DNA of 64,000 bases from an uncultured Gammaproteobacteria bacterium (lineage in GTDB: Bacteria > Patescibacteriota > Patescibacteriia > Veblenbacterales > UBA10138): positions 241,627-305,626 of the forward strand of contig CAYVOI010000001.1 in the NCBI GenBank assembly GCA_964453605.1, read 5' to 3'. Under the pieces are notes generated by a model that worked only from the letters and a program-made list of their open reading frames with translations, was not told the origin of the DNA and did not search any database. A program made the position numbers and the translations under genes. Positions 3,450 to 59,359 of this stretch are shown one piece after another. The number at the start of each line of letters is the position of its first letter. The first letter of the stretch is position 1.

Positions 3450-5121
3450 AAACAACAAAATCAATTACATCTCCTACACCCGCAAAAGTACAGAGGGCGA
3501 GGATAGACAAACACTCTCGCTCGAAGACCAGAAGCGAGAGCTTGATGAGCTAATTAGCAAAGAGGGTCTGAAGGTCTCTGAAAGTTTTACTGGGAAAGTG
3601 AAAGGTGAAAGCCAGTCCGCACACAAGAGAGGGCGACCGATTTTCAATCACATAATGCAACAGATTGAGAGAGGAAAAGCGAACGGTCTGATTGTGTACC
3701 ACCCAAACCGTATTGCCCGTAATGCTTTCGATGGCGGTCTTGTCATCACGTTGATGGACGAAGGTAAGTTGCTCGAAATTAAAACTCCCACCAAAACATA
3801 CGTGAACAACCCAGACGACAAGTTTTGGTTACAGTTGGAGTTCGGTATGGCAAAGAAGTCATCTGATGATAACGGTGTCGCAGTGACCAGAGGCATTAAG
3901 ACAAAATTGATGGCTGGATGGTATCCTTCACGCGCTCCACTTGGTTACCTCAACACAAAGAATTACGAAGAGAAGGGTAAGAACTTCATTCTCAAAGATA
4001 CAGAGCGCTACGATTCGGTTCGTCGAATGTGGGACTTGATGCTTACGGGAAACTATACTCCTCCGCAGATTGTTCAAATTGCTAACAACGAGTGGAAGTT
4101 CAAAACACGTCCTACCAAACGTCACCCAGGACTCAAGCCACTTTCGCGCAGCAACATCTACAAAATCTTTACCAATCCGTTCTACTACGGTTACTTTGAA
4201 TACGGCAAGGAAGGTTCAAAGCAGTTATACAAAGGCAGTCACGAGCCTATGATTACAGAAAAGGAGTACGACATCGTACAGAAGTTACTCGGACGACTGG
4301 GCAGACCACGCGCCCAAAAACATCGCTTTGCTTTCACAGGATTGATGAGATGCGGTAACTGCGGCGCAATGATTACCGCCGAGGAAAAGGTAAAACATCA
4401 GAAGAATGGCAACATCCATCACTACGTGTATTATCGCTGCACAAAACAGAAGGATGAAAAATGCCCAGAGAAGGCAATCGAGTTGAAAGAATTGAGTTCG
4501 CAGATTGATGAAGCTATTGGAAAGTTCACTATATCCGAGCGCTTTAAGAATTGGGCAATCAAAGACTTGCACCAGATACGCCAAACTGAAGCCCAAACAC
4601 ACGAAGCTGCTCTCAAGAGCACTGAACGCGACCACTTGCGCATTACGCAGCAGTTACACAATCTTTTGCTCAAGCATTCTTCACCAGAGAATAGCGAAGG
4701 ACAGTTGATGTCGGATGCAGAATATCAGGATGTGCGCACGAGCTTGCTAAAGCAGAAATCTGCGCTTGAGTCACGAATCACTACTCAAAACAAGGAAATT
4801 GACGAGTGGGTTGCATTAAGCGAACGCACCTTCAATTTTGCCCGCTACGCACGAACTTGGTTTGCCCAGGGCGATATGAACACCAAGAGAGCGATATTCG
4901 CCTGCATAGGTTCGCACCTCATAGTCAAAGACCGAAAAATAGCAGTTACCCTTCGTCCAGTGTTCCAAACAATCTTTGAAGCATTGCCAAAAACACAACC
5001 TGCAATTTCCGAGATTAGAACCTCTCTTGAACTTGCACTTTCAGCTTCAAATAACGAAAAAGACGCCCTTTCGGGGCAGTCTATTTCTACTTGGCGGAGA
5101 GGATGGGATTCGAACCCATGA
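3433..5121 (+). CDS. Large serine recombinase (resolvase/integrase family)
   Basis: MKTDIKNNKINYISYTRKSTEGEDRQTLSLEDQKRELDEL... shows an N-terminal serine-recombinase catalytic domain (Y-x-R-x-S-T, IVYHPNRIARN). A recombinase domain follows, then Cys clusters (CGNCGAM...YYRC) and a coiled-coil C-terminus. Its 3' end overlaps the 3' end of tRNA-Ser(GCT). Confidence 0.85.
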   Translation: MKTDIKNNKINYISYTRKSTEGEDRQTLSLEDQKRELDELISKEGLKVSESFTGKVKGESQSAHKRGRPIFNHIMQQIERGKANGLIVYHPNRIARNAFDGGLVITLMDEGKLLEIKTPTKTYVNNPDDKFWLQLEFGMAKKSSDDNGVAVTRGIKTKLMAGWYPSRAPLGYLNTKNYEEKGKNFILKDTERYDSVRRMWDLMLTGNYTPPQIVQIANNEWKFKTRPTKRHPGLKPLSRSNIYKIFTNPFYYGYFEYGKEGSKQLYKGSHEPMITEKEYDIVQKLLGRLGRPRAQKHRFAFTGLMRCGNCGAMITAEEKVKHQKNGNIHHYVYYRCTKQKDEKCPEKAIELKELSSQIDEAIGKFTISERFKNWAIKDLHQIRQTEAQTHEAALKSTERDHLRITQQLHNLLLKHSSPENSEGQLMSDAEYQDVRTSLLKQKSALESRITTQNKEIDEWVALSERTFNFARYARTWFAQGDMNTKRAIFACIGSHLIVKDRKIAVTLRPVFQTIFEALPKTQPAISEIRTSLELALSASNNEKDALSGQSISTWRRGWDSNP

Positions 5122-5183
5122 GGCGCTGTTTAGGCGCCACGGTTTAGCAAACCGTTGCCTTAAGCCACTCGGCCACCTCTCCC
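5092..5183 (-). tRNA. tRNA-Ser (anticodon GCT)
   Basis: Minus-strand sequence GGAGAGGTGGCCGAGTGGCTTAAGGCAACGGTTTGCTAAACCGTGGCGCCTAAACAGCGCCTCATGGGTTCGAATCCCATCCTCTCCGCCA. Perfect 7-bp acceptor stem, long variable arm, GTTCGAATC T-loop, encoded CCA. Confidence 0.85.
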
Positions 5184-5189
5184 TATGCT

Positions 5190-5582
5190 TTAAAGATTTT
5201 CTGACAGAAATTTTTTCAGAGCTCCCAGATCTTTTTTCTCTGGGTCGTAATAGTACGATGTGATACCAAGTAATTGAGCACTTTTTACCGCATTTGGGTT
5301 ATGTTCAAAGTAGATGACTTCGTCTTTGTTTAAATCATACCGCTGTAACAATATTTCAAAGTATTTAGGGTCAGTTTTTTCCGGGTCGTGTTTTAAGGTG
5401 AACACCTCGTAGGGCATTTTATCCAGGCCGAATTTCTTGAATTCTTCATCATTTGCACCTGTCAAAATTATTTTTTTGTTCGGAAGAGTTTCGAGTAAAC
5501 TATGCATTGCTTCAAATATTTCAAAACCTTCATTTACCCTAACTACGAATCCGTCAATGGCATCAACTAAAATAGTTTTCAT
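5190..5582 (-). CDS. Short HAD-like hydrolase-domain protein
   Basis: 130 aa; MKTILVDAIDGFVV resembles HAD motif I. AT-rich, wedged between two tRNA-Ser genes. Confidence 0.4.
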   Translation of the reverse strand: MKTILVDAIDGFVVRVNEGFEIFEAMHSLLETLPNKKIILTGANDEEFKKFGLDKMPYEVFTLKHDPEKTDPKYFEILLQRYDLNKDEVIYFEHNPNAVKSAQLLGITSYYYDPEKKDLGALKKFLSENL

Positions 5583-5608
5583 ATAGTTACCTTATAGGCG
5601 GGGGCTAG

Positions 5609-5700
5609 TGGCGGAGGGCACAGGATTCGAACCTGTGTGAGGCTCTCGCCCCAACTGGTTTTCAAGACCAGCGCCTTAAGCCACTCAGCGACCTCTCCAC
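5609..5700 (-). tRNA. tRNA-Ser-like (anticodon TGA) with a mismatched acceptor stem; possible pseudo-tRNA
   Basis: Minus strand GGAGAGGTCGCTGAGTGGCTTAAGGCGCTGGTCTTGAAAACCAGTTGGGGCGAGAGCCTCACACAGGTTCGAATCCTGTGCCCTCCGCCA. The D-arm is nearly identical to tRNA-Ser(GCT), but the acceptor 5' GGAGAGG versus 3' GCCCTCC gives two mismatches. Confidence 0.55.
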
Positions 5701-5701
5701 G

Positions 5702-6016
5702 TTAATTCAATTTACTGTACAGCTTTTTAAATTTGTCTTTTTTATAGCATACCAGGAACCTGTCTTTGTACCTGAGCCCCTGCGCCGTAGCGCCGAGGCA
5801 GAACCCTAGCACTATGGGGTTGTAGATATGACTCAGTACAAGTGTAACACCGAGTGCTAGTGCCCATATCCAGTGGTGCAGGTGAATGTAGTATGCGCCG
5901 AAGCTTAGGCGTAGCGATTGGTGTATGTTGTCTCCCGCGACTTTGCCAGCCGTGAGGCTGAACAACAGGTAGGTAGCAAGCGCGGCGAGCGCAATAGGTA
6001 GGGCAGAGTGCAGCAT
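5702..6016 (-). CDS. Small hydrophobic membrane protein
   Basis: 104 aa with 3 predicted TM-like hydrophobic stretches. Alternative ORF 5742..6059 is arginine-rich and less plausible. Confidence 0.4.
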   Translation of the reverse strand: MLHSALPIALAALATYLLFSLTAGKVAGDNIHQSLRLSFGAYYIHLHHWIWALALGVTLVLSHIYNPIVLGFCLGATAQGLRYKDRFLVCYKKDKFKKLYSKLN

Positions 6017-6043
6017 GGGGTTTATGGTGGCGGAGGGGGGTGG

Positions 6044-6073
6044 CCCTGAAGTAGAGCATAGCTCACTTCAGGG
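6044..6073 (+). repeat. Conserved hairpin repeat CCCTGAAGT-N12-ACTTCAGGG, copy 1
   Basis: Perfect 9-bp inverted repeat. The same stem recurs at 12085..12114 and, with one mismatch, at 43816..43847. Confidence 0.5.
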
Positions 6074-6126
6074 TAAAATTCGAACCTTACTGCGGTGTAA
6101 TAGTTTTTCGCGACCCCGTACGAGAG

Positions 6127-6213
6127 CGGTGGGGGCGAGATTCGAACTCGCGGTCCGTTTGAGCGGACTCCGGTTTTCAAGACCGGTGCACTAAACCACT
6201 ATGCGACCCCACC
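6127..6213 (-). tRNA. tRNA-Ser (anticodon TGA), class II
   Basis: Minus strand GGTGGGGTCGCATAGTGGTTTAGTGCACCGGTCTTGAAAACCGGAGTCCGCTCAAACGGACCGCGAGTTCGAATCTCGCCCCCACCG. Perfect acceptor stem, 3-bp D-stem, long variable arm, G73 discriminator. Confidence 0.7.
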
Positions 6214-47212: not shown

Positions 47213-47725
47213 ATGGACAACGATTACGTAATTTTCGATGTTGAAACCACGGGCATGAAGCCCGAGGAGGGCCATGCTATTGTGGAATTGGCGGCCCAGC
47301 GCGTTAGCGGTAGGGACGTGGTGGATACATTTCAGAGCATAGTAAACCCTGGCCGCTTGGTGGACCCTGAAGCTGCGGCCGTGCACGGCATAACCGACGC
47401 CGTAATTGCAGCCGAGGGCAAGCCACTCATAGAGGTGGTGCCGGCGTTCATGCTGTTTAGCGAAGGCGCGACATTGGTGGCGCACAACATTCGCTTTGAC
47501 CTTGGGTTCATGAACCACCATTTGAAAGCCCTTGGCTTGCCGCCGCTTGGTAACCCACTGCTCGACACACTCGACCTCGCGCGGCAGAAAGTGCTGGTCG
47601 CCAGCTACGCGCTGGGGTACTTAGCTAAGCATTTTGCAATTCCTCAACCCACTGCCCACCGCGCGCTCGCTGATGTGGAAGTAACTCGACAACTCCTGTT
47701 TAAGTTGCTGGACTTGAAAAAATAA
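47213..47725 (+). CDS. DnaQ-like 3'-5' exonuclease (DEDDh)
   Basis: MDNDYVIFDVETTGM Exo I motif and the HRALADVEV Exo III motif. Confidence 0.8.
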   Translation: MDNDYVIFDVETTGMKPEEGHAIVELAAQRVSGRDVVDTFQSIVNPGRLVDPEAAAVHGITDAVIAAEGKPLIEVVPAFMLFSEGATLVAHNIRFDLGFMNHHLKALGLPPLGNPLLDTLDLARQKVLVASYALGYLAKHFAIPQPTAHRALADVEVTRQLLFKLLDLKK

Positions 47726-47738
47726 TACCAGAAAATTT

Positions 47739-48485
47739 ATGGGAGAACCGAATAATTTTGGCTCAGTCAGTGTTGATTACAATGCTGCCCGCCGTGGGTA
47801 TCCAGGAGAACTTTATAGCTACCTTCACTCTTTAGTCCAACAGGTCACTCCCAATACTCTTGACATTGGCTGCGGAACAGGCATCTCAACTCGTGAGTTA
47901 CAACAGTATGGTTTTAATGTTGTCGGAGTTGATAAAGACCCTGTAATGCTTGAGGCGGCAAGGCAGCGGGGAGGTAACATTTCGTATCTGGTTGCACCGG
48001 CAGATACATTACCTTTTTCAGCAGAGCAATTTGATGTTGGTGTTGCATTCACCGCTTTCCATTGGTTCAACAATCTAGAATCATTGATGGAAATAAGGCG
48101 TGTGTTAAGGCGGGGAGGGGTTTTCTTTGCTGCACTCAAGGGTAACCGTAAGACTGCTGAGACCAAAGATTTTATGGCTGGTTATGAAGCCATACTTGAA
48201 AAGTATGCCGGTAAAAATTTTGATAGCACCAAGAATCATTTTAATACAGGTCTTCTAGCTAAACTATTCACCAATATTACGGAAAAGTCTTTCTACCTAG
48301 ATGAACGCTATACTACTGATGAAGCCTTGACGCTTATTCGTTCACTGAGTATTTGGAATCTAGTTTCTGAGGCAGATAAGCCAAATATGTTACAAGAGCT
48401 TGAAATTTTTTACAAGGGTCACTTAGTCGATGGTTTCGTAGTGAGAAGGCGGGAAATATTTACCATCGTTGCCTATAAGGAATAA
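47739..48485 (+). CDS. Class I SAM-dependent methyltransferase
   Basis: LDIGCGTGISTREL motif I; AT-richer than the surrounding genes. Confidence 0.75.
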   Translation: MGEPNNFGSVSVDYNAARRGYPGELYSYLHSLVQQVTPNTLDIGCGTGISTRELQQYGFNVVGVDKDPVMLEAARQRGGNISYLVAPADTLPFSAEQFDVGVAFTAFHWFNNLESLMEIRRVLRRGGVFFAALKGNRKTAETKDFMAGYEAILEKYAGKNFDSTKNHFNTGLLAKLFTNITEKSFYLDERYTTDEALTLIRSLSIWNLVSEADKPNMLQELEIFYKGHLVDGFVVRRREIFTIVAYKE

Positions 48486-48561
48486 TTAGTACGTGCTTAT
48501 TTAGTCTCGGACTTGAAAAAGTAAGTGAAAGCTACTATAGTTCACACGCAGTTCTTTACAC

Positions 48562-48637
48562 GGGTCCATAGCTCAGTTGGTAGAGCAGCGGCCTTTTAAG
48601 CCGTGTGTCCTGGGTTCGATCCCCAGTGGACCCACCA
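48562..48637 (+). tRNA. tRNA-Lys (anticodon TTT)
   Basis: GGGTCCATAGCTCAGTTGGTAGAGCAGCGGCCTTTTAAGCCGTGTGTCCTGGGTTCGATCCCCAGTGGACCCACCA. Confidence 0.85.
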
Positions 48638-51188: not shown

Positions 51189-51746
51189 ATGGCGTCTTTA
51201 CCACAGGAGGTAGTGCAAGCCAAAGAGCGTCAAGTGTCGAGGCTCTTTAAGCTAAGCTTATTGCTGAAAGGTGCGGTTGCTTTGCTCCAGCTGGTGGGTG
51301 GTGTGGCTTTGTACCTGGTGGCGCTGGTGGAGGCAGGGCTTACCCACCTGGTATCGCGCCAGGCGCTGCTTAATTTTATAAGTGCTCTAGCGCACGAGGA
51401 GTTAACAGAAGACCCGCGCGACTACCTGGTTACCCACCTCATTGGCGTGGCGCAGAACTTAACCGCCGCCTCGTTGCACTTTGCGGCGTTCTACCTCTTG
51501 GTTCATGGTGTAGTAAAGCTGTGGTTCATCGTTGGCCTGTTCAGAAAAAAGCTGTGGTACTACCCGACAGCTATAGTTGTTTTCGGCTTGTTCATGGTGT
51601 ACCAGGTGTACCGCTTTAGTATTACGCACTCGGTACTACTCATGCTTATCACTGTAGTGGATGCGGTGGTAGTGTGGCTTACCTGGCACGAGTACAACTA
51701 CCTGCGAGGTCGTTTGCGTATTGACAGTAGTGCGCCAGTACGCTAG
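51189..51746 (+). CDS. Hypothetical membrane protein (DUF2127-like)
   Basis: 185 aa, four TM helices. Terminator at about 51829-51863. Confidence 0.45.
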   Translation: MASLPQEVVQAKERQVSRLFKLSLLLKGAVALLQLVGGVALYLVALVEAGLTHLVSRQALLNFISALAHEELTEDPRDYLVTHLIGVAQNLTAASLHFAAFYLLVHGVVKLWFIVGLFRKKLWYYPTAIVVFGLFMVYQVYRFSITHSVLLMLITVVDAVVVWLTWHEYNYLRGRLRIDSSAPVR

Positions 51747-51866
51747 GGTAGGGGTAGGTATGACACGAACGGTTTACATCTCCATGAATAATAACCAGCC
51801 CTAGGGACTGGTGTTGCTGTTTGTTTTTCAACCGGTCCCTCTTTAATAGGGGGACCGGTTTTGTAT

Positions 51867-51942
51867 TCCGGGGTAGTTGAGTTGGTACAACGCCACGCTG
51901 TTAACGTGGATACCGCAGGTTCGAGTCCTGCCCCCGGAGCCA
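51867..51942 (+). tRNA. tRNA-Asn (anticodon GTT)
   Basis: TCCGGGGTAGTTGAGTTGGTACAACGCCACGCTGTTAACGTGGATACCGCAGGTTCGAGTCCTGCCCCCGGAGCCA. Confidence 0.85.
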
Positions 51943-52077
51943 TTACAATCTGTTCTACGCGACCGGAACGCTTCCATAGGCATATCCAGTTGTAGAGGTC
52001 GTTAATAACGTCGAACCCTAGGCTTCGGCGTCATTATTGTCATCGCTGAAAATTCAGGATATATTTATCCGTAGATT

Positions 52078-52914
52078 ATGGCTAACCCATTTGAAGGCTT
52101 TATAAATAAGTTCGAACAGAGCTTACATAGTAAAGATTCTGCTATTTATAATGTTCTGGCAAATGTTTTCTCGATGCGTATCATTGGTAATAAAACCCAC
52201 GGGGATTTGGCAGAAATTGCGTTGACCGAATATGTAAACCAATACGTAGATGGGTATTCAGCTAAGCATACTGGGAAAGAAAAATTTCGTGCCAAAGAGT
52301 TTGAGGAAGATATTCGTATTAGAGAAGAAAATACAGGCGTAGAGATACCTGTCAGCATTAAAACCTATGGCGCCGGGCCGTTACAGCTTTCTACAAATAA
52401 AGACAGTTCAATGTTTAGCTGTTTGCAAAAATCGATTGGCGAACATGAGGTCACCGATCCAGTTAAAATAGAGGAGGTTTTGGGTCAGCCATGTTTTGTA
52501 AATTTTAGTGATGTAAACGTACTTCCGCTTATTTATAACGAGAAGGCCCTATCATTTAAGATAGTGATATTTAATTTAGGCAAAGCCTATCAATCGGTAC
52601 GAAAAATAAAATTTCTTCCGCCTAGAAAGTATGGCAAGGTCAAACAGACATTCCCTATTTATAAATTTTTTAATGCTAAAGACGAATACATATTTGAAGT
52701 CCGTTATGGTGATGCCAAAGCAAATGCATTACAAAGGGGAATGTGGACTCACACCGAGAATGCCCCGGGTTATTTTAAGGTGCTTTTGCATGGTACATAT
52801 AAGATTAATGAACCTCTAATAAATTTGATATCGAAAATTCTCGTGTCTCCTAAAAGCAAGCATGAAGAAATTTTGAAGCTCTTCCCGGCCTCAAAAGAGA
52901 AGTCCGTAATTTGA
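52078..52914 (+). CDS. Hypothetical protein, candidate restriction endonuclease partner of the adjacent MTase
   Basis: 278 aa in a low-GC island directly upstream of a D12-class MTase. No recognisable motif. Confidence 0.35.
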   Translation: MANPFEGFINKFEQSLHSKDSAIYNVLANVFSMRIIGNKTHGDLAEIALTEYVNQYVDGYSAKHTGKEKFRAKEFEEDIRIREENTGVEIPVSIKTYGAGPLQLSTNKDSSMFSCLQKSIGEHEVTDPVKIEEVLGQPCFVNFSDVNVLPLIYNEKALSFKIVIFNLGKAYQSVRKIKFLPPRKYGKVKQTFPIYKFFNAKDEYIFEVRYGDAKANALQRGMWTHTENAPGYFKVLLHGTYKINEPLINLISKILVSPKSKHEEILKLFPASKEKSVI

Positions 52915-52960
52915 GTTAATCCGACCCTCATTATTTATGCTATAATCATAAGTAATCATT

Positions 52961-54157
52961 ATGGATACTGAGGGTATTAAATATACAGGTTCAAAAAGGG
53001 AGATAATCCCTGTACTGCTTAAATTAATGCGCCCCCTTGGTGTGCGTACTGTTTTTGATGGGTTTTCTGGAACGACTAGAGTTTCGCAAGCTCTTAAAAA
53101 GGCTGGTTACTTAGTTTATGCGAATGATGTTGCAGTTTGGTCTAAAGTTTTTGGTTACTGTTACTTGTTGAATAAAAAATCAGCCGCGTATTATCAAAAG
53201 ATAATAGATAAGTTAAACAGTCTCCCGGGTAGAGCGGGGTGGTTCTCTAAACACTATGGTGGAGAGTCAAATGGCGGTAGTGCTGTTCATGAGGATGGGA
53301 AAAAAAGAATGTGGCAGCTGCATAATACAATGAAGTTAGATTCGATTCGATCCGAGATTGACAATTTAGCCAATAATGAAATTGAAAGGTCGGTATTGTT
53401 GACGAGTTTAATTTTAGCCATGGACAAGGTGGATAGTTCGGTGGGCCATCACGTTTCTTATCTAAGAGAATGGGCACCAAGGGCTTATAATACTATGCAG
53501 ATGAAGGTGCCAGAATTAATAATTGACGACAAAGATCATCGTATTTTCTGTGATGATATTTTTAATGTGTTGGAAGGTGTTGAAGTTGATTTAGCCTACT
53601 ACGATCCTCCGTATGGCTCTTCCAATGAGTTAATGCCGCCATCCAGAGTACGTTATGCTTCTTATTACCATCTTTGGAAGACCGTATGTTTGAATGATGA
53701 GCCTAGATTAGTTGGCAAGGCTAACCGTCGTGAGGATGCAAGTGATTTAATTGCCGGTTCCATATTTGAAGAATACCGCAAAGATAGTACAGGTAGATAT
53801 TTAGTAATGGATGCAATTGAGAAACTTATTAAAAACACCAAAGCGAAGTACGTCATTTTGTCATACAATAATCATGGTCGCGCGACTTTTGATGGTATAC
53901 TTGAAGTAATTAGGAATCTGAAGCTCAAGTGCTCCATCTTTGAGATGGACTATAAGAAAAACGTCATGTCGCAAATGGCCTGGACAAATAAATGGTTAAA
54001 TGGTGGCTCTTCGCAAGATATCGGAAATAAGGAGTTTCTGTTTTTGATGCAAAAGAAGAAGTCCCTTAGTTTTAATATAGGTGCTAGTTTTACAGTAGAA
54101 AAAATAAGCCTACGAGAGCCCGCTACTGTGAATCAACAGAAACTCGCGCTGTTTTAG
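52961..54157 (+). CDS. DNA adenine methyltransferase, D12/Dam class
   Basis: KYTGSKREI (like KWAGGK), FDGFSGTTRV motif I, YYDPPYGSS motif IV; 398 aa; low GC. Confidence 0.75.
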   Translation: MDTEGIKYTGSKREIIPVLLKLMRPLGVRTVFDGFSGTTRVSQALKKAGYLVYANDVAVWSKVFGYCYLLNKKSAAYYQKIIDKLNSLPGRAGWFSKHYGGESNGGSAVHEDGKKRMWQLHNTMKLDSIRSEIDNLANNEIERSVLLTSLILAMDKVDSSVGHHVSYLREWAPRAYNTMQMKVPELIIDDKDHRIFCDDIFNVLEGVEVDLAYYDPPYGSSNELMPPSRVRYASYYHLWKTVCLNDEPRLVGKANRREDASDLIAGSIFEEYRKDSTGRYLVMDAIEKLIKNTKAKYVILSYNNHGRATFDGILEVIRNLKLKCSIFEMDYKKNVMSQMAWTNKWLNGGSSQDIGNKEFLFLMQKKKSLSFNIGASFTVEKISLREPATVNQQKLALF

Positions 54158-54218
54158 TCGACATTATCTAACTATTCCAATATAGCTCAGGCTTATCGCC
54201 GGAGGTTACTATATAGGT

Positions 54219-54539
54219 ATGGCCCCAAAAGCAATCGCCGGTGGTGTGGCGCACGCCTTACCCACGGATTTACGAAAAGCCCTCTCTCCCGATAGAGCGG
54301 CCTTGGTAGTCTGGCAAGACCTCACACCACTAGCGCGTAACGAGTGGATCTGCTGGACTATGTACGTCAAGAAAGCAGAAACGCGTAAGGAGCACGTGGC
54401 GCGTGTAGTGCAGGAGCTTAAACAGGGTATGCGCCGGCCGTGCTGTTGGCTGGGTTGTATTCATCGCACGGACAAGCAGATAAGCCCTTCGGTGCGGGCA
54501 GTGCTCAATAGGCAATCTCACAGATTTAAGAAAACATAG
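54219..54539 (+). CDS. Hypothetical protein
   Basis: 106-aa ORF. Confidence 0.35.
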   Translation: MAPKAIAGGVAHALPTDLRKALSPDRAALVVWQDLTPLARNEWICWTMYVKKAETRKEHVARVVQELKQGMRRPCCWLGCIHRTDKQISPSVRAVLNRQSHRFKKT

Positions 54540-54642
54540 GTCTGCCTAGAGTACGTCACTCGCGCCTACCACGCCGCTGGATTTTTGATGGGTGCAAAGA
54601 AACGTTACACAACCGTAAGCGTTGCTTATAGCGCCTTAGCCT

Positions 54643-55998
54643 ATGTGGTATCATGCTTTTATGCGCGCCCCAAGGATTAGCAGAGCTACCACGTGGCTTA
54701 CGGCCATGTTGTTTGCGGTACAGCTTGGGGTTGTACCAGTGTTAGCTGACCAGCCGAACTCTCAGGCTGAGCGGGCGCAGCTGCAGCAGCAGCTCCAGGT
54801 TATTGAGCAGCAGATTGCTGAGTACGCCCAGCAGCTGGCGGTAACCAAAACCCAGAAGAACACCCTGACCAACAAAATAAAACAACTTAAGACCCAGCAA
54901 GCCGCTTTACTCTTACAGATTAAAGCCACGGCTCTTAAGATAAGCGTGCTGGAAGGGCAAATTGGTGATACGGTTGGAGCCATTGACCAGGCCACTACCC
55001 GTTTGGAGACACTGCGCGGACAGCTCGGGCAGTTTGTGGTACGGCTTGAGCAGCAAGACGATACGCCGCTCTGGTACCGCGTGGCCACCACCGCTACCTT
55101 GTCAGATGTATTCAGCAACGTGCAGAGCTACGTGCAGGTAGTGGGGGCTTTACAACAGCTGATGCAGCAGGTAACGGCCACCAAAGCCCAGCTCGAGGTG
55201 CAGCACCAGGTGCTCTCGGGCCAGCAAGACGAAGCGCAAAATTTGCTCTCTATAAAAACCTTGCAGCAACAGAAGGTTGCTGACACGGTAAAAGAGCAGA
55301 ACACCTTACTCCAGGAAACCAAGGGTCGGGAGAGCGCGTACCAGAGCACCCTCAGTAATGCCAAGGCGCAGGCTGCTGCTATCCGCAGCCGCATTTACCA
55401 GCTCTTAGACGTTAGTACCCAGATAACCTTTGGTCAGGCGTACCAAATTGCGAGTTGGGTTAGTGACCAAACTGGCGTGCGGCCAGCGTTCTTGCTTGCT
55501 ATTTTAACGCAAGAGTCGTCCTTAGGGCGGAACGTAGGTACGTGCAACCGTTTAGGGGACCCGCCAGAAAAGCATTGGCAGGCGATTATGAAACCTGATC
55601 GCGACCAGCAGCCGTTTTTGCAGATAACACGCGAGCTCGGCATGGACCCTGACGTTACCCCGGTGTCCTGCCCTATGCGCAACAAAGACGGCAGCCAGCT
55701 GGGCTGGGGTGGCGCCATGGGGCCGGCGCAGTTTATCCCTTCCACCTGGCTTGGGTACCGCGGCAAGGTGACTGCCTTTACCGGTAAAGCTACCGCGAAC
55801 CCGTGGGACATTCGTGACGCGTTTGTAGCTGCGGCTATAAAACTTAAAAATGATGGAGCCGATGGCACACCCACGGGCGAGTGGAATGCGGCTATGCGCT
55901 ACTTTAGCGGCAGCACCAACCCGGCCTACCGGTTCTACGGCGACAACGTGGCCAAACTGGCCGAAGGCTACCAGGCCGACATCAACCAGCTGAAGTGA
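54643..55998 (+). CDS. Secreted coiled-coil protein with C-terminal lytic-transglycosylase-like domain
   Basis: Signal/TM N-terminus and about 250 aa of Gln-rich coiled coil. The C-terminal ILTQESSLG (catalytic E-S) and GAMGPAQFIPSTW resemble the SLT domain. Confidence 0.5.
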   Translation: MWYHAFMRAPRISRATTWLTAMLFAVQLGVVPVLADQPNSQAERAQLQQQLQVIEQQIAEYAQQLAVTKTQKNTLTNKIKQLKTQQAALLLQIKATALKISVLEGQIGDTVGAIDQATTRLETLRGQLGQFVVRLEQQDDTPLWYRVATTATLSDVFSNVQSYVQVVGALQQLMQQVTATKAQLEVQHQVLSGQQDEAQNLLSIKTLQQQKVADTVKEQNTLLQETKGRESAYQSTLSNAKAQAAAIRSRIYQLLDVSTQITFGQAYQIASWVSDQTGVRPAFLLAILTQESSLGRNVGTCNRLGDPPEKHWQAIMKPDRDQQPFLQITRELGMDPDVTPVSCPMRNKDGSQLGWGGAMGPAQFIPSTWLGYRGKVTAFTGKATANPWDIRDAFVAAAIKLKNDGADGTPTGEWNAAMRYFSGSTNPAYRFYGDNVAKLAEGYQADINQLK

Positions 55999-57882: not shown

Positions 57883-57982
57883 TGAGATGCACCTCCTTTC
57901 TTGCTTACGTATGAACTGTTGGTGTAAGTATACACCAGTTCTAGCGCAAGGTCACCTGGTGCTATACTATCGTTACAGATAT

Positions 57983-58378
57983 ATGGAACAACCCAAGGTA
58001 CACAGCAAGGGTTTGCGCGAGTTCTACTTCTGGGCAGGCATTGTAGCCACCTTTGCTTACCGCATTATTATTGTGCTCACAGGCTACCCGGGGTGGCTTA
58101 AGTTCACCTGGTACGTTGGCACTGTTGGCTTTGTGCTCTACTTTGTTCACCGCTACCAAGTTTCTGAGCGCCGTGCCAAGCTTATTCATGAGCACACACT
58201 GGCGCAGAAGGTTTCAGGACTTTCCGAACTGAGTAAAGACGACAAAGCCGCTATGAGCTACGTGTTCCAAACGCTCGAGAGTAGTAAAGAAAAATGGAAC
58301 TATATTTTTATTTTTATCATGTCGGGCCTGGCGCTGGTGTGGGGGATAGTGACCGACGTAACTGCTTGGATGAAGTAA
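57983..58378 (+). CDS. Hypothetical membrane protein
   Basis: MEQPKVHSKGLREFYFWAGIVATF...; -10 TATACT 15 nt upstream; terminator at 58425-58470. Confidence 0.45.
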   Translation: MEQPKVHSKGLREFYFWAGIVATFAYRIIIVLTGYPGWLKFTWYVGTVGFVLYFVHRYQVSERRAKLIHEHTLAQKVSGLSELSKDDKAAMSYVFQTLESSKEKWNYIFIFIMSGLALVWGIVTDVTAWMK

Positions 58379-58483
58379 TTATTAACCAATCTCAAAAACA
58401 AGGCTTGGTAGACTTTGAATATCTACAAAAAACATCCCCTTCCTTAATTACTTCAGAAGGGGATGTTGTATAGAGCAATAATG

Positions 58484-59206
58484 CTATTTGGCAACAGCCG
58501 CATAACGAATTGGCTGTGCCTTTTTTTTGATTTTTTGGGTTAACCCAACGGTCCGGACACCATGGCTGCAAAGATATGGGAAAAAATGTCCACTGCTACC
58601 TTGTATTACCTCTTTATCCAAGGAGATAATTGCGAATTTTCTCTGTAGACCAGGATAGCGCTTACCGATAGCAAGCAGTTCCGCAATATTCGCAGGGCGA
58701 TATCCCAGCCTATCTAGTTCAGCAATAATCTGGTGGCGGTCTAAGCCCCGATAACCAACTTCATGGTTTTCTAGGTTGACTAAAAAAATTTCTGTGTCAA
58801 CCTCGCCATTCCCTGAAATTGGAAAATTCGAGGCATTGATCGTGTCATGAATTTTTCCATACTTGCCACCTTGAAGCATTTCCTCAAGCGACTGATTATA
58901 GTTCACTGACACAGTGACTGATCTTATTTTCCAGTCGTCCGTACTGTTGCCTGGTAGTTGTGGAGTAACTGCAGGCTCCTCGTCGACTACGTTACTTTTT
59001 TTTACCAGCGTCAGTTCCTTGCCTTCCACCAATGCCGTAAGAGCGAGACGTAAATTCCCAATCAGCGCCTTTTTCTTGTTTGTTTTCAGAGCCCTTATCA
59101 GCGTGCTTATTTCCGAAGTTCCAAAATCAGCAATGATTGTTGTGATGGCTTTAACAATCATACTAAACAATTTCAGGAACTCCGAGGTCGTTTCTTGTCG
59201 GTCCAT
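58484..59206 (-). CDS. Hypothetical protein (AT-rich)
   Basis: 240-aa ORF whose composition is distinct from its neighbours. Confidence 0.4.
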   Translation of the reverse strand: MDRQETTSEFLKLFSMIVKAITTIIADFGTSEISTLIRALKTNKKKALIGNLRLALTALVEGKELTLVKKSNVVDEEPAVTPQLPGNSTDDWKIRSVTVSVNYNQSLEEMLQGGKYGKIHDTINASNFPISGNGEVDTEIFLVNLENHEVGYRGLDRHQIIAELDRLGYRPANIAELLAIGKRYPGLQRKFAIISLDKEVIQGSSGHFFPYLCSHGVRTVGLTQKIKKKAQPIRYAAVAK

Positions 59207-59359
59207 GGTTCCCTCTCTTAGAGTAGAGTGATGTATGTTTGTTTATTAAAATTTTTAAAGAACATTATATATTATCACTAAATTAACGTTGTGTCAATAG
59301 CTCTGTTGTTGCCATAAGTAAAAGCACTCCCGCTGAATAGCGGGAGTGCTTGATTTATA

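Follow-up and report, generated by a model that had tools for sequence, protein, structure and literature searches.

The locus was analysed within a stretch of 64,000 nt, referred to as the window, and all its features lie on the plus strand. ARAGORN places a tRNA-Asn gene (GTT) at 51867–51942. It is followed by a spacer of 135 nt (51943–52077, GC 0.43), which is found in this genome only, and then by two co-oriented genes with 46 nt between them. The first, R (ORF1, 52078–52914), codes for a protein of 278 aa, predicted to be a type II restriction endonuclease with a PD-(D/E)XK fold. The second, M (ORF2, 52961–54157), codes for a predicted alpha-class (D12) N6-adenine DNA methyltransferase of 398 aa. 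The R-M spacer holds TGCTATAAT at 52938–52946, which reads as an extended -10 element with a putative promoter function. The next gene (54219–54539, 106 aa) belongs to the OmdA/YdeI family (PF13376, 2e-14).

In windows of 300 nt, GC is 0.35–0.42 across approximately 52000–54200 but 0.50–0.60 on both flanks. The R-M genes together have a GC of 0.381, while the remaining window is at 0.528–0.539. Thus the GC drop after tRNA-Asn, the two co-oriented reading frames and the 46-nt gap, all named in the preliminary description of this DNA, were recovered at the same positions from ARAGORN, the ORFs and the GC profile.

Two further low-GC patches (0.38–0.45) are seen in the window. One, at 47650–48550, spans a methyltransferase-family ORF (47739–48485) and ends at tRNA-Lys (48562–48637), while the other, at 58150–59350, spans the ORFs 57887–58378 and 58484–59206. 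Both may be additional acquired segments. The window also contains, at 5092–6213 on the minus strand, three tRNA-Ser genes (GCT, TGA and TGA) with a regular spacing of about 516 nt. Their mutual similarity is confined to the tRNA parts, and the spacers are about 430 nt.

The M protein passes the Pfam model PF02086 MethyltransfD12 (59.7 bits against a cut-off of 22, E 4.6e-16) and matches the PADLOC MTase_II model PDLC03342 over its full length (2.6e-137). It contains FDGFSGTT at residues 32–39 and DPPY at 215–218. In an alignment of 25 family members, reaching down to about 50% identity, IKYxGSK (motif X), DGFSGTTRV (I), ND (II) and DPPYG (IV) are invariant and stand in the order of the alpha class. 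However, M scores 15.6 bits with the NCBIfam dam model TIGR00571, far below the cut-off of 114.85. A phmmer search of the PDB found no solved relative of M, the structures of Dam, T4 Dam and DpnM being left unmatched, and the family profile reaches DpnM with E = 0.034 at best. These three results rule out that M is an orthologue of Dam. The gene had been described as a Dam-family N6-adenine methyltransferase; the D12 class and the motifs hold, but the attribution to Dam does not. As M is not a Dam orthologue, GATC specificity is not implied, and the DpnI/DpnII/MboI assay that had been proposed for this locus is therefore a guess.

Within the close clade, M carries a C-terminal extension of about 30 aa (residues 366–398, in the window approximately 54056–54157) that ends in NQQKLxxF; it is missing in the distant clade, where M identity is about 50%. 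In one locus from a Pyrinomonadaceae MAG (L002/L030, 4850–6038), the M homologue is split into ORFs of 62 aa and 326 aa and adjoins a Transposase_mut gene. Here R and the controller gene C (described below) are intact beside the apparently frameshifted M. With its nuclease intact, a cell whose methyltransferase is split should not survive, except if the split is an assembly error or R is not expressed.

The R protein has no match in Pfam or NCBIfam. Its best hit among the PDB sequences is a pyrophosphatase at E 0.11, i.e. no real match, and tblastn against plasmid and phage collections returned none either, so that no annotated prototype name can be given to it. Among 5.8 billion proteins the R family forms 3,613 clusters, with 174 representatives at 50% identity, and every name in it is "hypothetical". 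A genome scan found relatives of R in 482 species-representative genomes from many phyla, and they are very common in Patescibacteria. R is, however, recognised by the PADLOC model REase_II PDLC03568 ("Type II restriction enzyme") at 8.7e-65, with residues 6–266 aligned to positions 7–263 of the 281 in the model. The PADLOC papers do not state whether this model was built from characterised or putative REBASE entries.

The genomic neighbourhood of the family points in the same direction. Among the best 80 of the 482 genome loci, a homologue of M adjoins the homologue of R in every case (77 with R followed by M in the same orientation, three convergent). Over these loci the identities to the two proteins drop in parallel, from 74 to 43% for R and from 73 to 50% for M. 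In an independent metagenomic set of 80 loci, M adjoins R in all 76 that could be evaluated. R and M are thus separate, adjacent genes that are inherited together, as in type II restriction-modification (R-M) systems. In many relatives a gene of 71–72 aa coding for a helix-turn-helix (HTH) protein ends a few nucleotides before R, and this protein matches the PADLOC model Control_protein at 4.5e-20. Such controller (C) genes are characteristic of type II R-M operons.

A structural model of R was built with AlphaFold2 from 42 homologues (pLDDT 85.5, pTM 0.79). It has the alpha-beta-beta-beta-alpha-beta core of the PD-(D/E)XK fold, and Foldseek returned nothing for it at E <= 1e-3. In the family, E46, D78, S93-x-K95, Q103, T106 and the C-terminal block EVRYG..ANALQRGxW(T/S) are conserved down to 27% identity; E46 and S93-x-K95 are invariant over this range and D78 is conserved to at least 90%. 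The model places E46 in a helix (40–56), D78 just before a strand (79–83) and S93 and K95 in a strand (89–98). The modelled arrangement would correspond to the canonical one of PD-(D/E)XK enzymes, with a serine replacing the middle acid, and E46, D78 and S93-x-K95 are the candidate catalytic residues. The exact composition of the active site is uncertain, as the motif is SxK instead of (D/E)xK; a third acid would need to be supplied from elsewhere, perhaps by E46. The conserved block EVRYG..ANALQRGxWT is likely a DNA-recognition element.

The preliminary description had proposed the upstream gene as the endonuclease partner of the methyltransferase, although without a recognisable motif. The lack of a motif is correct for Pfam and NCBIfam, but not in general, as the nuclease signature appears once homologues are aligned. 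The proposal of a partner is borne out by the PADLOC match, the linkage in both sets of loci and the controller gene upstream in many relatives. One could instead read M as an orphan methyltransferase and the upstream gene as an unrelated non-nuclease, as the empty Pfam and NCBIfam searches and the uniform label "hypothetical protein" might suggest. We consider this extremely improbable and in effect refuted, since the REase model matches at 8.7e-65, restriction endonucleases make up all of the best fold matches, the linkage with the M family holds in 156 of 156 loci, controller proteins are found in the relatives and the D...SxK plus E motif is conserved. The upstream gene being a non-nuclease and M an orphan was also what the preliminary description had named as evidence against itself, and neither was found. 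Four independent lines, i.e. the PADLOC model, the linkage to M, the controller gene and the modelled fold, agree that R is an endonuclease.

The copy in the window has no HTH gene directly upstream of R and thus differs from a C-protein-controlled R-M system. Using tblastn and blastn against C genes and other loci, neither a C gene nor a remnant of one was found in 51943–52077. In this respect the window copy is not unusual among its close relatives. Of 76 close relatives in the metagenomic set, 45 have a full-length C, 11 a truncated one and 20 none, and about half of the close loci in the genome set lack it.

With C absent, and C normally needed, R could be weakly expressed or silent. In the C-dependent systems that have been studied, inactivation of C abolishes the expression of R (PMC3874152). 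The locus would then be an R-M system by descent only, consisting today of a solitary methyltransferase and a dormant, or nearly dormant, nuclease gene. The missing C gene, present in full in 45 of the 76 close metagenomic relatives, fits this reading. However, R is uninterrupted, with no conserved residue lost, both in the window and in 16 of 16 relatives in which C is absent or truncated, which argues that R is still under selection. In addition, a promoter-like TTGTCA-17-TATATT is found at 52037–52065, 12 nt upstream of the R start, as a match to the consensus only, and transcription could also run on from the tRNA. We therefore regard a silent nuclease as unlikely, though well within what should be kept in mind, and prefer an R-M pair in which both genes would be expressed.

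M appears to have a promoter of its own. TGCTATAAT ends 14 nt before the M start codon, and of the 74 distinct spacers of the family, 67 have the pattern TGnTAnnAT in the 70 nt before M, compared with 4.6% in shuffled sequences. From this conservation, the element is probably an independent, constitutive extended -10 promoter of M.

Comparison with the closest relative available (L087) reveals how the cassette sits in the genome. The gene order SIMPL-SIMPL-DUF2127-tRNA-Asn ... transglycosylase is kept in L087, and the flanking protein is 86% identical; homologues of the transglycosylase gene are found in Patescibacteria only, to which the host accordingly belongs. In a blastn alignment of the window to L087, homology ends exactly at the 3' end of the tRNA (51942) and returns at 54615. 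The slot between these breakpoints (51943–54614, counterpart 3188–6881 in L087) holds R, M and the OmdA-family gene in the window. In L087 it holds a HATPase_c_3 protein of 570 aa, a protein of 226 aa without a match and a leucine-rich repeat (LRR) protein of 181 aa. The OmdA-family gene has no counterpart in the L087 slot and a host-like GC (0.548), and is probably not part of the R-M cassette. The 570-aa protein of L087 shows weak N-terminal matches to PADLOC TmtA (about 6e-8). The cargo of L087 may represent another type of defence, in which case the slot would be a minor hotspot of defence genes.

Homologues of R that are about 65–74% identical are found in unrelated phyla, and the nearest homologues of R and M (about 74–75%) belong to other Patescibacteria classes as well as to other phyla. 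The 15-point GC deficit (0.38, the genome being at 0.53), the breakpoints against L087 and the cross-phylum homologues of R jointly support acquisition into a variable slot at the 3' end of the tRNA. The horizontal origin proposed in the preliminary description thus stands. Neither an integrase nor a transposase is found among the ORFs of the slot, and no repeat of the tRNA-Asn 3' end is found in 51700–54700 or within 12 kb downstream. Hence, the locus shares only two features with an integrase-mediated, tRNA-targeted island, its place beside the tRNA 3' end and a slot of variable content. The segment could alternatively be native, its composition a gene-specific bias, and the missing integrase, transposase and flanking direct repeats would agree with that. 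But the closest relative has different genes between the same flanks, homology breaking off at the 3' end of the tRNA and returning at 54615, the GC is 15 points below that of the genome, and the nearest homologues of both proteins (about 74–75%) lie in other classes and phyla; a native segment is accordingly a very remote prospect, and we retain acquisition.

The position next to a tRNA is recurrent. In the close clade, which is mostly Patescibacteria, a co-oriented tRNA lies within 250 nt of the left edge in 32 of 87 evaluable cassettes, while none of the 31 distant-clade loci shows it. The tRNA-adjacent cassettes represent 19 distinct junction types and 10 tRNA identities, and the tRNA-Asn of the window is an eleventh. 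For the genome set alone the enrichment has P < 1e-9 at a generous background of 3%. Besides the window (51867–52078), tRNA-adjacent loci are L013, L014, L016, L017, L019, L022, L025–L027, L035, L107, L109, L114, L116 and a subset of L133–L170.

In the tRNA-adjacent loci the controller gene is mostly lost or truncated at its 5' end. Adjacency is found in 26 of 45 cassettes that have lost C compared with 6 of 42 with a full C (P = 4e-5 in a Fisher test that takes no account of relatedness). In several loci the R start follows the tRNA by only 6–12 nt; a promoter would not fit there, which implies that R is co-transcribed with the tRNA. No integrase was found in the tRNA-adjacent loci, and in 12 of them the sequence beyond the cassette was searched for att-like repeats of the tRNA 3' end, with none found. 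The sole repeat among these 12 is in L013 (9826–9980), between tRNA-Ala and R: a stretch of 20 nt (CGATTCTGGCCAGGTCCACA), 63 nt past the tRNA and 37 nt before R, repeats the tRNA-Ala 3' end exactly and resembles a scar left when something integrated or was excised at this tRNA in the past.

The adjacency may have come about through promoter capture, or through deletional streamlining bounded by an essential tRNA on one side and a selected or addictive R-M pair on the other. Taken one step further, Patescibacteria cassettes would land, or stay, 3' of many different tRNAs without an integrase or att duplication, lose C and express R as read-through from the tRNA. We put this forward as a speculation that is rather doubtful at present. 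If true, R would be expressed independently of C from tRNA promoters, and streamlined genomes might have a new way of moving or keeping R-M systems.

The recognition sequence was approached through the avoidance of palindromes in the window and 80 carrier loci, i.e. in carriers only. In the window, GATC and CTAG have observed/expected ratios of 0.56 and 0.61 (maximal-order Markov model), and in the close clade TCGA, GGCC, GATC, ACGT, TTTAAA, AATATT and GATATC are depleted. Many palindromes are thus depleted and no single target stands out, and in view of this and of the carriers-only sampling the approach was dropped. In the literature on Patescibacteria methylomes and R-M motifs nothing was found that bears on this family. 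As neither a curated model nor a characterised prototype of the R family was found here, its specificity may be new.

From the gene content, the family memberships, the fold, the linkage and the insertion breakpoints, we suggest that 52078–54157 is a horizontally acquired two-gene type II R-M cassette, most likely of type IIP. For this proposal in full, the activities of both enzymes included, we estimate a probability of roughly 0.88. For the enzymatic activity, target sequence, oligomeric state and promoters we infer the following mechanism. The cassette would have entered the variable slot directly 3' of tRNA-Asn in a Patescibacteria genome. M, transcribed from the conserved extended -10 element that precedes it, would use S-adenosylmethionine to mark an adenine-containing target in the host chromosome. 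Without C, R would be transcribed from the site at 52037–52065 or via read-through from the tRNA-Asn unit. Its product, a Mg2+-dependent PD-(D/E)XK endonuclease of the EcoRV-like branch and probably a homodimer, would cut the target sequence of M when unmethylated. Together, the two enzymes would destroy incoming phage or other foreign DNA, and the pair could double as an addiction module.

The cassette belongs to a known kind of system and is ordinary within it; existing defence-finder models already detect it. Only the unannotated R family and the pattern of tRNA adjacency and controller loss go beyond the routine. For annotation, a function can be proposed for a family that every source surveyed labels "hypothetical protein" (about 3,600 clusters, 482 species-representative genomes). 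For biology, the locus is another case of defence genes in a tRNA-adjacent variable slot, here in an ultra-small genome, and the adjacency together with the controller loss offers a modest, testable starting point for understanding how streamlined genomes regulate and keep restriction enzymes. In enzymology, the R family could serve as a source of a type II enzyme, perhaps of new specificity.

Among known enzymes, R can be compared with the EcoRV-like (beta-branch) PD-(D/E)XK structures ThaI (3NDH), NaeI (1EV7), SwaI (5TGQ), SfiI, BglI, MspI, HinP1I and EcoRV, to which its identity is 9–14%. The motif of R is D...SxK while theirs is D...(D/E)xK, and the C-terminal ANALQRGxW block has no named counterpart in these enzymes. 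Most of these fold neighbours leave blunt ends or 3' overhangs, by analogy a weak hint on the cleavage geometry of R. M shares the PF02086 match and the motif order X, I, II, variable region, IV with the D12 enzymes Dam, DpnM/M.DpnIIA, T4 Dam and M.EcoRV, but it is about 100 aa longer than Dam and DpnM.

At the level of the operon, the PvuII, AhdI, Esp1396I and BamHI systems are examples of C-protein-controlled type IIP R-M. In the searches run, R and M have no sequence similarity to these systems, and in contrast to such C-R-M operons the window copy is without a C gene. Shared features are the C gene upstream in relatives, single-function R and M proteins and an own, conserved promoter-like element of M.

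Finally, the placement can be compared with the R-M complexes described as mobile units by Furuta, Abe & Kobayashi 2010 (PMC2853133), which include substitution-type alleles as well as tRNA-targeted insertions. The tRNA-linked cases of that study have an integrase homologue and tRNA-derived flanking repeats, while the window and its relatives have neither an integrase nor a downstream repeat. With the substitution-type alleles, the locus shares a slot that is occupied by unrelated genes in a close relative, here next to the 3' end of a tRNA. Since integrase, transposase and tRNA repeat are all missing, the locus resembles the substitution-type polymorphism rather than the integrase-mediated tRNA insertion of PMC2853133.
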